NCBI GenBank assembly: GCA_000165345.1
Contig: CM000432.1
Location: 192,001 to 256,000 of the forward strand
Length of the DNA: 64,000 nt
Direction: 5' to 3'
Part shown: one piece after another, positions 57,947-63,153 of the stretch
Position numbering within the stretch: position 1 is the stretch's first letter
Layout: the number at the start of each line of letters is the position of its first letter
Notes under the pieces: generated by a model
Told to the model about the DNA's origin: nothing
What the model saw: only the letters and a program-made list of their open reading frames with translations
Databases searched by the model: none
Position numbers and translations under genes: made by a program

Positions 57947-60022
57947 TTATAATGCTTGATAATTGTTTGCTGTATTATTATTACCATAATTACTATTCAT
58001 ATTAAATCCACTCAAAACTGAAATGATAAATCTCACTCCCTAAATAAATTAACATTGAATAAAGTGAATATAATTGTAAAAAAAAAGTTAGTTATTTGTT
58101 TTGTTAACTTACCTTTAAAACATATAATAATACAATACATGTAATAAAACCAATCAAAAACCAGACAATGTAACCTGCATTATATAAAGAATTTTCATTT
58201 AACATTTCAACAGAAATATTCTCAAGACTTGAAGAATCATCAGAAATCTTAATTTTTTCAATATTAGCATTATTAAATTCCATACTTTCTTTCTTATTAA
58301 TCTTTTTCTGTTGAGCAAATTTACTCTTTTTAAAGAATGTTGAAACCTAAGAAAAAAAAAGTGAAATAGTTAATTTTTGTATGAAATTTTGTTTTCTCTA
58401 ATTAATATATCAGGTAAACTTACATGACAAATTTCTTCTCCATAACATTCTTTTAATCTATTTGTTATAACTTGTCCATTATAAAGCAATCTAATATAAT
58501 AAGGTAGAGATTCTTGAACTAATTCTGCCTCATTGTCATCAAAATAGTCATAATTTTGTCTTTTTTCTATACTTAGTATTGGATTATTATATATCTCAAT
58601 GATAAATGTTGAAGCATATGGTGGCCAATGTTCATCCCAAATCTCTAAAGAAGCCAAAGTTGGAATAACAGTTGTATCATGTCCTGAAAATAAGATAAAT
58701 TTAGGTACTTTAATATGAACACCATCATTTAAAGAATAATAATGTTCATATTTATTACATAATGGATTAAGTAAATATTCAAAATTGGTTAAAGAATCTT
58801 TACCCTTGAAATTTGTACGTTGATTAATAATAGAACATAATCTCTTAATATTAGAAAATTCATCACTTTTGTTTTCATTAAATAATATTACATCCATTAT
58901 ATAATCTCTGACATCAAATAATAATCTGCTCATTTCAGATTTAGATAAAATTGAATCATTCCAAGTATATATTACAGATAATTCTTTTTCTATTGCAGAA
59001 ATAGTTCTATTTAGTAGATTATTTTCTATAAAAGCTTTTGGAAGCTTATTATGATTTCTTGTACAAATAGTTGTCATAATACAGTCCATAATATCACCAG
59101 GCCATAAATCTTTTAATAATGGAGTTCTAATCTTTTCTTCTAATTCTTGATATAAACTTTGATGTTTATCTACAATATCAAAATAAGACTTAGAACTTAG
59201 TGCAGCTTGAAGATGATCTGTAATATTTTCTACATTAGAATTTGCAAACAAATAATCAGACTGAATATCCATTGTATGTAGTGGAAATTTTTGAAATACT
59301 TTAAAAGTTTCCTCTTTGCCAACAAATTCTTCCAATAAACTGGTTAATAATGCAGCAGCAGAAACTGTAGTTCTTTGCATATCTGAAGATCTAATATATA
59401 TTTCATCTCTATAATTATGACCAATTCTTAATCCATTTCTTGTTACAAGATTTTCACCTTGTTTAAAATAAGCCTCAGCAAGTAGTTTTCCATTAATTCG
59501 ATGTTGTTCGTATCCTTGTAAGATTAGTTGACCCATTTTACAAGTTCCATTCAAGTTATTTTCCCATTGTCTAATATCATAATGTTTTGAGAATTCTAAA
59601 GTTTGTGTTCTGTTTCTCATATCAAAAGCCGCTGCTTGAACTGTTGTTACTAATTCGTCACAATTCCAACTTTGATTTAAACCTTCCCAGCATTTATGAT
59701 ACTTGGTTGGAGTTCTTGCACCATGTCTTATAATTGATTGAACTTGAATTAACTTCATTGAATCATATAATTTTGAGTCATTAATTTTGGGGATTTTTCT
59801 GGTTTTCTCAAATACGCTTGGCTCTGCACAAAAATTATAATATTCTGGACATAATCCATTAATAATACACTCTTGATCATTTTCTATAAAAAATTTATCT
59901 TGAGTAACTTCTTTCCATCTTTTGTTACTTAAATCACTATATTCATCCCTGAATTTTCCAAATACAACAAATTGATTCAGTATTAATTCAATTATAAAAA
60001 GTAATAATACAATTCTTTTCAT
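57947..60022 (-). CDS. secreted histidine acid phosphatase (branch-2 histidine phosphatase), paralogue 1, 3-exon model with a C-terminal transmembrane anchor
   Basis: Main exon 58424-60022 has a signal peptide (MKRIVLLLFIIELILNQFVVFG), the catalytic motif RHGARTP and the downstream GHDTT proton-donor motif. The track ORF stops 3' of a GTAAGT at 58423-58418. A proposed 78-nt intron (58346-58423) joins exon 2 (58113-58345), which encodes ...YIVWFLIGFITCIVLLYVLK, a TM helix. A proposed intron at 58040-58112 joins exon 3 (57947-58039), which encodes GVRFIISVLSGF...NNYQAL*. Confidence 0.7.
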
Positions 60023-60560
60023 TTCTTATTAGTTTCTGAGTTCCAGCTTTGCATACATATATATATATATATATATATTTATATATATATATTAATATAT
60101 ATCTATATATAAATAAATAAATATATATATATATTAATATAATGTATATATTTATTTATATATTTTATTTAATATATACTTCCAATATTTATCTTCAATA
60201 ACTTTTTTTTTTACTTATTTTAACAAATATTCATATTATATTTCACGTGATGTTAATTTGAAGAAAAAAAAAATTATTAAAAAGTTATATTAACTTCTAC
60301 CTTTTTCTCTCTATTGCTTTTTTAATTTCTTTTTTGTTTAAATTTAGATTATTATTCACATTTTCACGATTTTGTAATTAATTCATAATTTTTTGTATAT
60401 TAAGTTAACATATTTTCATTAAATATTTATAATTTTTGTTTCTATAAATTTCAGATTTTTCCCTCTTTTTCTCATTTTTTTCCATATTAATTATTTATCC
60501 AAAAAAAACTTTCTGTTATTTCCTCTTTTTTTTTCTTGCATGCGCATATAATTCTTGAAT

Positions 60561-60587
60561 GCATGCATGCATTTTCATGTGGACGAA
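60561..60587. promoter_or_regulatory. GCATGCATGCATTTTCATGTGGACGAA upstream of phosphatase paralogue 1
   Basis: A copy of the 601-628 block, about 540 bp 5' of the 60022 start. TAGGCGGAAAAAAAAG follows at 60596-60610. Confidence 0.35.
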
Positions 60588-61104
60588 TTATTAATAGGCG
60601 GAAAAAAAAGTCAGTAGATTGTAGAGAGAAGAAAACAAAAAAAAATAAATAACTGATAATGAACTAATATAAAGTATAATTCGGTTTTTACATTAATTTG
60701 GACAAAATTGGTAAATTAATATACTAAACAGACCTCTAGTTTATCTAGAAAACTAATACTGTATGCTTAGAATATTCATTTTTAAAACACATATGATTAA
60801 ACATAATATTATTATTAAAAGAATAATTTTTACAAATGAAAATTCAATCAAATTTAAATAGATTGAATTTTAACACTTTGATCTAGAATTAATTGAATCT
60901 ACAAATTTCAAAATGTTCAATAATATTTAATTCACGCATATTCAATTAATTTCAGAATTTTCGAGATAACATTGTAAGAACAACTGACAATTTTAAAAAT
61001 AAGTTACATACAATTCCTTTGCAATTCTTTGACATGCAATTTAAATTAAAAAAAAAAGATGAGAATTAGAAACCCTTTTTTTTTGTAGTACTTTCACATC
61101 CCCA

Positions 61105-63153
61105 TTAATTTAAAATTAAAACAATAATTCCCTGTTTGATATTTTTGACAAGTTTTAAATATCTTTCAAAGTTTTTATTTAGACAAGATTAATTTGATTT
61201 CGATCTCATAGCCTAATTTATTGTGTTAATAGTTTTCAATTATAAGAAAAAAAGGAATACTTTATATATAACCTACCTTAATTGAATACAATATTATTAG
61301 GGAAGTTAAAGCCCCAAGTAAGAAAGACAAAGAGTAACTTAGGAAAGGAGTATTGATACGATAAACTCCATTGAAATTACCCTCAAGATTCTTTTGGTTT
61401 TTATTAGAAGAACCTTTAACAGAATCTGTCTCATTTAAAGATTTTTCATATTTATTTGTTGATTCTAATATTTCTTTTTTACCAATTTTTTCAAATTTGG
61501 CAAATTTACTTGTTTCGAAAAATTTGTAAGCCTAAAATTAAAATATTAAGTTAATTTAAATGACTTTCCATTAAATTAAAGAAATAAAAAACTTACATGA
61601 CAAATTTCGTTTCCTTCACATCCTTTTAATTTATCTGTTATAACCAATCCATTATATAATAATCTAACATAGTAAGGAAGATTCTTTTGAACTGATTCAA
61701 GTTTTAAAAGACTATTTGCCTCCCCTTTGTATTCCTGTTTTTCATAAGGATCATAATAAATCTCAAAATTAATAGTAGAAGCATAAGGTGGTAAGTGCTC
61801 ATCCCAAGCATGTAACGAAGATAATAATGGAATAACTGTCAAATCATGCCCTGAGAAAAGAATAAATTTAGGTGCTTTAATTTCCTTCTTGGAAGAATTA
61901 TGATACTCATATTTATTACATAAAGGATTGAGCAAATATTCAAAATTCATTAAAAGATCTTGGCTCATAAAAGCTTTGTTTAGAGCAGAATTTGAACATA
62001 ATTCCTTTATGTTTGATAATCCGTCATTTTTATTTTCATAGAATAATATAGCATCAAGTATAAAATCTCTAATTTCATACATAAATCTACTAATATCTGA
62101 TTTGGCTATAATTGAATCATTCCATGTAAACACAGAAGATACTTCTTTTTCTATTGTTGCCATGGTTCTTTCAAGTAGATTATTTTTATAAAAAGCTTCT
62201 GGAAGCTTATTATCATCCCCAGAACATATTGTCATAGATATACAATCAAGTAATTCAAATGGCCAAGATCTATTAAGATCATTTAATTTAGCATCTTTTT
62301 CCAATTCCATATATAAATGTTTACGATCTTCCAACAATTCTTGAAAATTTTTGGAGGTGAAAACATATTTTAATACTCGAGAATTGTCTACGAGGTTCTT
62401 ATTTGCAAACAAATATTCAGAATGAAAATCCATTGTATAAATGGGTAAATTTCTAAATCTTTGGAAAGTTTCTTCTTTACCAAAAATATTTTCTAATAAA
62501 CTTGTAATTAATGCAGCAGCAGAAACTATGGTTCTTTGTGTATCGGATGATCTAATATACATTTGATTTTTAAAATCACTAATTTCCAATCCACTCTTTG
62601 TTACCAAATGTTCTCCTTTAAAATAAGCTTTAGCAAGTATTTTCCCATTAATTCTATGTTGTTCATATCCTTGTGAAATGAGCTGACCCATCTTACAAGT
62701 ATTAGTTAAATTATTTTGCCATTGTTTTGTTTCATAATGTTTTGAGAATTTCAATGTTCGAGTTTTACTTTGTTTTTCAAAAGCTGAAGCGGAAATTAAA
62801 GATTTTAAATCACTACAATCCCAGTTTTGTTTATACCCTTCCCAACATTTAAATGATTTTACTGGAGTTCTTGCTCCATGCCTAGAAACTACTTGTAATT
62901 GAATTAATTCCAATCTATTAAATAGCTCTTCATCTCTTAATCTCGGGATTTTTTTAATTTCTTCAAGGTTGCTAGTATCTGCACAAAGACTAAATTCGGC
63001 AGGATTCACAATTTTTCCCAAATATCCATTTTCATCTACAACAAGATCACTCTCTAATGCATCTGAATTTGATGAAATTGTTTGATTCTTTCGCTCTTGT
63101 TTAATTACACAACCAACAAGGCTGAAAAATGACAGAAGTACAACAACTCTCAT
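61105..63153 (-). CDS. secreted histidine acid phosphatase, paralogue 2 (about 60% identical to paralogue 1), same 3-exon architecture proposed
   Basis: Main exon 61597-63153 has a signal peptide (MRVVVLLSFFSLVGC, where the track's first M is a GTG), the RHGARTP motif and the GHDLT motif. It has the same EICH|GTAAGT donor at 61596-61591. A proposed intron at 61532-61596 joins exon 2 (61277-61531), which contains the TM helix FLSYSLSFLLGALTSLIILYSI. A GTAGGT donor follows. The third exon (about 61105-61131, GIIVLILN*) is the least certain part. Confidence 0.6.

Follow-up and report, generated by a model that had tools for sequence, protein, structure and literature searches.

The window analysed here is a stretch of 64,000 nucleotides (nt) of Cryptosporidium parvum chromosome 4 (assembly GCA_000165345.1, contig CM000432.1, positions 192,001 to 256,000 of the forward strand) with a G+C content of 27.7%, and all coordinates are those of the window unless another locus is named. 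It contains two adjacent histidine acid phosphatase genes, cgd4_920 (gene A, upstream) and cgd4_910 (gene B, downstream), which form a head-to-tail tandem pair on the minus strand, as a preliminary description made from the sequence had recognised, and which appear as long open reading frames (ORFs) at 63153..61576 (-) and 60022..58370 (-), respectively. The best protein matches of both ORFs are Cryptosporidium proteins, and the locus is flanked in every related genome compared by a poly(A) polymerase gene upstream and a convergent WD40 gene downstream. The analysis described below indicates that both genes very probably encode branch-2 histidine acid phosphatases from three exons each, that the products are predicted type I membrane proteins, and that cgd4_910 may be sorted by means of its tail.

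Exon 1 of cgd4_920 (61597..63153, -; 519 codons) encodes a signal-like N-terminus and the histidine acid phosphatase domain, and ends in ...GNEICH. It includes the RHGARTP catalytic motif (62863..62883, -; residues 91-97), the equivalent columns of which are invariant in 67 homologues and in which His92 is the presumed nucleophile, and the GHD proton-donor motif (61843..61851, -; residues 435-437), which reads GHDLT from residue 435. Intron 1 (61532..61596, -; 65 nt; GTAAGT...TTTTAG; phase 0) has its donor GTAAGT at 61596, directly after ...GNEICH, and its acceptor AG at 61533-61532, and read-through would stop after VSFLFL. Exon 2 (61277..61531, -; 85 codons) encodes a linker and the transmembrane segment FLSYSLSFLLGALTSLIILYSI (61280..61345, -; residues 582-603; Kyte-Doolittle (KD) hydropathy 1.97), and is followed by intron 2 (61213..61276, -; 64 nt; GTAGGT...AATTAG; phase 0), the donor of which, GTAGGT, lies at 61276. 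Exon 3 (61189..61212, -) encodes only AMRSKSN and the stop codon, a predicted short basic cytosolic tail, and this peptide is identical in C. meleagridis and reads ALKSKSS in C. hominis.

Exon 1 of cgd4_910 (58424..60022, -; 533 codons) has the same composition of signal-like N-terminus and histidine acid phosphatase domain, with RHGARTP at 59708..59728 (-; residues 99-105) and the GHD motif at 58676..58684 (-; residues 447-449; GHDTT from residue 447), and ends in ...GEEICH. Directly after this sequence lies the donor GTAAGT (58423) of intron 1 (58347..58423, -; 77 nt; GTAAGT...TCTTAG; phase 0), which has its acceptor AG at 58348-58347 and whose read-through would stop after 17 codons. Exon 2 (58113..58346, -; 78 codons) encodes a disordered linker and the transmembrane segment YIVWFLIGFITCIVLLYVL (58116..58172, -; residues 592-610; KD 2.59), and is separated by intron 2 (58040..58112, -; 73 nt; GTAAGT...ATTTAG; phase 0; donor at 58112; read-through would stop after VS) from exon 3 (57947..58039, -). 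The latter encodes GVRFIISVLSGFNMNSNYGNNNTANNYQAL and a stop codon, and comprises a conserved juxtamembrane sequence, GVRFIISVLSGFN, an Asn-rich spacer and NNYQAL, in which the C-terminal YQAL (57950..57961, -) is a motif of the YxxΦ type. Three of the four introns of the pair are thus bounded by GTAAGT...YAG and one by GTAGGT...TAG.

The preliminary description had located a canonical GTAAGT donor right after ...GEEICH and ...GNEICH and had proposed that splicing opens an exon with a transmembrane helix and then a second donor; each of these elements was found, the donors at 58423 and 61596 being in phase 0 and the second donors at 61276 and 58112 in phase as well. Its intron lengths of 65-78 nt were borne out for the 65 nt of cgd4_920, whereas the intron of cgd4_910 is 77 rather than 78 nt long, because base 58346, which had been included in a span of 58346-58423, is the first exon base. 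The third exons, which had been left unresolved, are now mapped to 61212..61189 and 58039..57947.

Both products belong to the Pfam family His_Phos_2 (PF00328), with expectation (E) values of 7e-26 and 3e-23 and scores of 91.9 and 83.2 bits against a curated cut-off of 23.6, and the RHGARTP and GHD[TL]T motifs noted at the outset are present in both, at residues 91-97 and 435 in cgd4_920 and at residues 99-105 and 447 in cgd4_910. Across the 67 aligned homologues, R99, H100, R103, R211, R217, H448 and eight Cys residues (cgd4_910 numbering) are invariant, and D449 is nearly so. RHGARTP aligns with RHGARSP of ACP6, IRSSDxQRT with IRSTDVDRT of prostatic acid phosphatase (PAP), and GHDTT and GHDLT with AHDTT and AHDVT of PAP and ACP6. 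By inference from the family, the His of RHGxRxP would attack the phosphate to form a phospho-histidine intermediate, with the conserved arginines as phosphate-binding residues and the HD-motif Asp as proton donor. An AlphaFold2 model of cgd4_910 has a mean predicted local distance difference test (pLDDT) score of 78.9, with most of the core at 80-98 and residues ~70-550 mostly high apart from local dips, and consists of a helix at residues 2-20, the catalytic core, a disordered linker at 553-589, a helix at 587-621 (pLDDT ~84) and a disordered tail. Its best Foldseek matches are human ACP6 and PAP (E ~1e-14; TM-score 0.70-0.75 normalised to the target) and the histidine acid phosphatases of Francisella and Legionella, with a probability of 1.00, and the modelled core has the two-domain alpha/beta plus alpha fold of histidine acid phosphatases.

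The exon-intron structure was mapped or derived for 13 genes of nine species, namely two genes each in C. parvum, C. hominis, C. meleagridis and C. ubiquitum and one each in C. canis, C. felis, C. bovis, C. ryanae and C. muris. Both intron positions with their phases, the transmembrane exon and the third exon are common to all 13. Exon 1 invariably ends in ...C[HP] followed by GTAAGT in phase 0, and exon 2 (222-255 nt) ends in the transmembrane segment followed by the second in-phase donor. The introns measure 46-131 nt, lengths not divisible by three, and read-through of every one of them meets an in-frame stop after 2-33 codons, giving peptides that are unrelated to each other. The suggestion that the shared donor position reflects a real intron predating the duplication is upheld. 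The alignment of the two C. parvum proteins also continues across the splice junction, where ICHAYKFFETSKFAKF is aligned with ICHVSTFFKKSKFAQQ.

The exons and introns of the tail evolve differently. In the comparison of C. parvum with C. ubiquitum, gene B shows 83-84% identity in its three exons and 57% and 66% in its two introns. The ratio of nonsynonymous to synonymous substitution rates (dN/dS) of exons 2 and 3 together is 0.12-0.23, with most changes at third positions, and that of exon 3 is 0.05-0.15; by this measure the tail exons of gene B are under purifying selection. The tail exons, which encode the transmembrane segment and ...NY[LQ]AL, are also present in the DNA of C. bovis (locus L005, 8650-8889 and 8955-9044) and C. 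ryanae (locus L008, 4625-4846 and 4915-5004), although the deposited proteins of 518 and 512 amino acids (aa) both stop at ...CHVS. Because the exons are found in species annotated without them, their conservation is not an artefact of annotation transfer. In the C. parvum IOWA-ATCC annotation, introns are stated to be 100% supported by RNA-seq (PMC8744675). An exact search of metagenome contigs for the exon 1-exon 2 junction, as expected of a spliced transcript, gave no match. GTAAGT is not enriched in the window (34 observed versus ~42 expected), and an in-frame GTRAGT occurs near the stop codon in only 4 of its 20 long ORFs.

The C-terminal segments are the highest 19-residue hydropathy peaks of each protein, and only the N-terminal signal-like segments (KD 19-mer means of 1.74 and 2.48) also exceed 1.6. 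Basic residues follow the C-terminal hydrophobic segment, and the ectodomain carries 6-10 N-glycosylation sequons, which together with the eight invariant Cys residues fit a lumenal domain. The proposal of type I membrane anchoring, rather than a soluble product, thus agrees with the signal-like N-terminus, the Cys- and sequon-rich domain, the disordered linker, the single C-terminal helix and the short basic tail, and the predicted topology would place the catalytic domain in the secretory or endosomal lumen or at the cell exterior. Of 132 family members, 106 have a C-terminal hydrophobic segment with a tail; almost all full-length homologues from outside Cryptosporidium are among them (tails of 20-70 residues), and the Cryptosporidium records that lack the anchor are ORF-only models ending in ...CHVS... 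plus a few fragments. Because nearly all full-length protist homologues share it, the anchor is ancestral and not an invention of Cryptosporidium.

The tails of the two paralogues are quite distinct. Exon 3 of gene B has the consensus G[VI]RFI[IVT]S[VIM]L[SI]GFN, which leads into an Asn-rich spacer that varies in length and then into the C-terminal NYQAL; the latter is found in eight species including C. muris and is replaced by NYLAL in C. bovis. YQAL fits the YxxΦ consensus of tyrosine-based sorting signals (PMC2121048), and would route cgd4_910 to, or recycle it through, an endosome-like or secretory compartment. No tyrosine is present in the gene A tails, which are KAMRSKSN in C. parvum and C. 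meleagridis, ALKSKSS in C. hominis and KLNLLRSIFKDFDLSTNAQIN in C. ubiquitum. Because its short basic tail has no YxxΦ motif, cgd4_920 is probably located elsewhere than cgd4_910. No localisation of either gene product was found in the supplements of two Cryptosporidium papers, neither of which lists the genes. Many diatom and other protist homologues end in acidic sequences after the membrane span (...KFDENTLI, ...DENNLI, ...EEDAII) that resemble [DE]xxxL[LI] sorting signals, and these ...DExxLI-like tails may point to adaptor-dependent sorting as a trait of the family.

Among the closest known systems outside the genus are the mammalian lysosomal acid phosphatase (LAP; ACP2) and the transmembrane form of ACP3. 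A transmembrane isoform of ACP3 exists, and both enzymes share with the Cryptosporidium proteins the branch-2 fold, the catalytic residues and a type I arrangement with one C-terminal span and a short cytosolic tail; PAP is also among the best matches of solved structure. Unlike in ACP2 and ACP3, the membrane span of the Cryptosporidium proteins is preceded by a disordered linker of ~40-60 residues. Identity to the solved relatives is only 15-17%, and the Cryptosporidium domain is ~170 residues larger by virtue of a helical insertion around residues 260-430. Mammalian LAP owes its targeting to a tyrosine signal of the cytoplasmic tail (Peters et al., 1990, as cited in PMC2199866), and cgd4_910 ends in YQAL, whereas cgd4_920 has no tyrosine motif. 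Unlike that of LAP, the tyrosine motif of cgd4_910 lies at the extreme C-terminus, ~30 residues from the membrane, and ACP2 is at most a putative orthologue. Human ACP6 (PDB 4JOB) is the best solved match (phmmer E = 4e-10; Foldseek E = 6e-15; TM-score 0.75 normalised to the target). ACP6 is a soluble enzyme of mitochondria and has no C-terminal anchor, and its substrate preference is not transferable at an identity of 16%. Any substrate of the Cryptosporidium enzymes is a matter of prediction. Among protists, 'lysosomal acid phosphatase'-like proteins of diatoms and others (Fistulifera solaris, Seminavis robusta and MMETSP transcripts) are 26-31% identical over ~75% of the query and share the conserved Cys residues, the C-terminal hydrophobic segment and a cytosolic tail of 20-70 residues, which is often of the acidic ...DExxLI type and not YQAL. 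In parasites, Leishmania MBAP and Trypanosoma brucei MBAP1 are membrane-bound histidine acid phosphatases of type I topology that belong to the endosomal and surface system; these trypanosomatid proteins are absent among the listed homologue matches, and no comparison aimed at them was made.

Three-exon, membrane-anchored models of both genes are already public. The spliced cgd4_920 product of 611 aa is letter-identical in an exact look-up to QOY41983.1 and WRK32045.1 (locus tag 4g920 in other assemblies), and the spliced cgd4_910 product of 641 aa to QOY41982.1, KAL5368982.1, WKS77285.1 and WRK32046.1 (4g910). The QOY records bear the CPATCC locus tags of the C. parvum IOWA-ATCC annotation, and its models, with two introns each, differ in nothing from the structures given here. 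In addition, the C. hominis UdeA01 record CUV05473.1 (611 aa) equals in length the spliced C. hominis product derived here. The expectation that an ORF caller would report soluble proteins is met by the 2004 models, EAK87646.1 (525 aa) and EAK87647.1 (550 aa), both of which are ORF-only and lack the tail exons, and by several current records of C. bovis, C. ryanae, C. tyzzeri, the chipmunk genotype and some C. hominis that end in ...CHVS.... CPHLJ_4g920 (608 aa) keeps intron 2 of cgd4_920, and the annotated C. tyzzeri cgd4_920 record is a fragment of 168 aa. The gene pair and its family assignment are likewise in print (PMC7371110), and a literature search by the identifiers cgd4_910 and cgd4_920 found no paper. 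Because identical proteins stand in GenBank and the architecture is ordinary for the family, the finding is correct but already known.

The paralogues are more diverged than the ~60% identity first estimated, the two proteins being 50% identical and 71% similar over 565 aa. By synteny, two adjacent phosphatase genes occur only in C. parvum, C. hominis, C. meleagridis and C. ubiquitum, and two annotated proteins are known from the chipmunk genotype. The preliminary description had raised the question of whether the pair is lineage-specific, and in the species compared it is limited to the parvum-ubiquitum clade; neighbour-joining unites the A copies in a single clade on a long branch, with 100% bootstrap support. 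cgd4_920 also evolves faster, with a dN/dS of 0.25-0.33 versus ~0.1 for cgd4_910. In the published view, one of two adjacent genes was lost in C. bovis and C. ryanae (PMC7371110); on the present comparison, a gain within the parvum-ubiquitum clade fits the distribution better than such a loss, and cgd4_920 would then stem from a duplication within the intestinal clade. Short tracts in which A and B are 92-99% identical at the nucleotide level, third positions included, are found at codons ~130-175 and 417-447 of C. ubiquitum A and at codons ~156-190 of C. meleagridis and C. hominis A, the paralogues being otherwise ~50-80% identical. In C. parvum, the two copies resemble each other less over the tract shared by C. 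meleagridis and C. hominis. These tracts look like ectopic gene conversion.

Several points weigh against the reading of both genes as spliced, membrane-anchored and, in the case of cgd4_910, sorted enzymes. The RNA-seq support for these introns rests on the general statement of the annotation paper and not on gene-specific reads; the donor of cgd4_920 intron 2, GTAGGT, is weaker, and two deposited C. parvum models read through this intron (608 aa, ending in VGYI); the signal-peptide and transmembrane calls are hydropathy heuristics combined with a structure model, not the output of dedicated predictors; YQAL lies ~27-31 residues from the membrane, farther than classical lysosomal signals, and adaptor binding is only predicted; and the link between these genes and the acid phosphatase activity of oocyst membranes, discussed below, is circumstantial. 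It could be supposed that the introns are spliced rarely or not at all, so that the genes would make soluble secreted phosphatases ending soon after ...ICH and the downstream hydrophobic ORFs would be fortuitous. ORF-only models still stand in GenBank for several species, and Cryptosporidium genes are mostly intronless, with intron loss described (PMC8744675). However, exactly the spliced models occur in an annotation whose introns are called fully RNA-seq supported (PMC8744675), the tail exons are kept in frame from C. parvum to C. muris at a dN/dS of 0.12-0.23, next to introns that vary in both sequence and length, conservation does not extend to the read-through peptides, and homologues outside Cryptosporidium have the same C-terminal anchor, so that this alternative is very unlikely.

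The two remaining alternatives concern cgd4_920 only. Its hydrophobic segment might be a cleaved signal for a glycosylphosphatidylinositol (GPI) anchor, in a protein that ends either as spliced or at the read-through ...IKVGYI, which would make it a lipid-anchored ecto-phosphatase. The segment is indeed only 8 (spliced) or 5 (read-through) residues from the C-terminus and is preceded by small residues (N, G), and the weaker intron 2 donor and the two read-through models would suit this arrangement. The spliced tail KAMRSKSN, however, carries three basic residues, which suits the cytosolic face of a membrane anchor; AMRSKSN is kept in C. meleagridis and corresponds to ALKSKSS in C. hominis, where the donor is GTAAGT; the C. 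ubiquitum tail is 22 residues long; and cgd4_910, as the ancestor, clearly spans the membrane and has ~30 residues of tail. A GPI-anchored cgd4_920 is thus unlikely. That cgd4_920 is a decaying or non-catalytic duplicate, with cgd4_910 as the only working enzyme, is very unlikely, although its higher dN/dS, its long branches, the loss of the conserved tail and the fragmentary C. tyzzeri record could be taken in that sense, because the gene has an uninterrupted frame in each of the five species possessing it, its RHGARTP, IRSSDTQRT and GHD motifs are intact, the eight family-invariant Cys columns are kept, dN/dS is well below 1, and the introns retain their signals. The preferred reading remains that of two three-exon genes for type I membrane phosphatases.

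Other features of the window may be mentioned here. The stop codons of gene B (57947, -) and of the convergent WD40-repeat gene (57826, +) are ~120 nt apart (window 57826-57947), and the 3′ untranslated regions of the two genes probably overlap. The upstream region of gene B contains the motifs GCATGCATGCA and GCGCATGCAAG at ~60,534-60,570 and 60,060-60,200 (-), in a part that is nearly identical between C. parvum and C. hominis and that begins exactly at the end of the diverged block described below, and a long (TA)n or AT-rich microsatellite stands immediately before the start codon; this region may hold regulatory elements. Two other ORFs may have unrecognised 3′ introns, because an in-frame GTAAGT lies within 35 codons of their stop: in the ORF at 6232-7398 (+), the donor is at 7390 and a 62-nt intron would open an exon of 28 codons, and in that at 30714-32978 (+), the donor is at 32922 and no convincing acceptor is nearby. 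No tRNA genes or Rfam matches were found in the window, and a bacterial promoter and terminator scan, irrelevant for a eukaryote, gave 65 promoter-like sites versus 52.6 expected, attributable to AT-richness noise, and no terminators.

A block of ~3.1 kb (window ~60,625-63,745), which covers cgd4_920 and both of its intergenic flanks, is strongly diverged between C. parvum and C. hominis, and both of its edges are abrupt. Nucleotide identity between C. parvum and C. hominis (UKH1) is 50-87% within the block, compared with 97-99% in the adjoining sequence on the gene B side and nearly as much on the poly(A) polymerase side, and C. meleagridis is closer to C. parvum here (81-92%) than C. hominis is. 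The synonymous divergence (dS) between C. parvum and C. hominis is 0.46 for gene A versus 0.086 for gene B, and the gene A proteins of the two species are 75% identical. With C. ubiquitum as outgroup, informative sites in gene A join C. parvum with C. meleagridis in 76 cases, C. parvum with C. hominis in 26 and C. hominis with C. meleagridis in 21, whereas those in gene B follow the species tree (13, 4 and 3, respectively), and the tree of gene A groups C. parvum with C. meleagridis at 99% bootstrap. The records of all four C. hominis assemblies are of the diverged type, and the other of the two clusters unites the records of C. parvum with those of C. tyzzeri.

As a cause of this divergence, broad gene conversion by cgd4_910 was rejected: outside a single short tract, the A-to-B identity profile of C. 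hominis resembles that of C. parvum, and the divergence extends into the non-coding flanks. Long-branch attraction was rejected as the sole cause, since by a rough estimate ~20-25 sites, as many as support each of the two other groupings, would be expected to support the parvum-meleagridis grouping and 76 were observed. Because the edges are sharp and the non-coding flanks diverged, an old haplotype delimited by recombination is favoured over selection at the protein level alone. The C. hominis cgd4_920 locus looks like a haplotype that predates the split of C. parvum and C. meleagridis and was brought in or retained by recombination, and there may alternatively have been a local acceleration of the C. 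hominis block. A protein database search with C. hominis cgd4_920 found no closer relative, and hence no donor-like sequence for the allele. As for the protein, cgd4_920 has lost the C-terminal YxxΦ signal, which cgd4_910 retains from C. parvum to C. muris, and may act at another membrane, for example at the surface of the parasite or its interface with the host. That the paralogues have split their destinations and that, jointly, the C. hominis cgd4_920 locus is an old recombinant haplotype is possible, but is offered as a tentative and rather doubtful combination.

The consequences of the gene-structure call are a matter of annotation hygiene only. The 2004 C. parvum records lack the anchor, as do current records of C. 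bovis, C. ryanae, C. tyzzeri, the chipmunk genotype and some C. hominis, and analyses based on such ORF-only proteins would class these enzymes as soluble and secreted because the membrane anchor is absent. According to the summary in PMC4324108, oocysts of C. parvum were reported to have a membrane-bound acid phosphatase activity (Aguirre-Garcia and Okhuysen, 2007). cgd4_920 and cgd4_910 are the obvious gene candidates for this activity and plausibly its sources, and a phosphomonoesterase predicted to face outward or into a lumen could bear on nutrient scavenging in a salvage-dependent parasite. The diverged block around cgd4_920 has more potential than the gene-structure call and could be of use in studies of how Cryptosporidium recombines and adapts to its hosts; if the old recombinant haplotype were true, cgd4_920 would be a candidate locus for host adaptation that distinguishes the two main species infecting humans.

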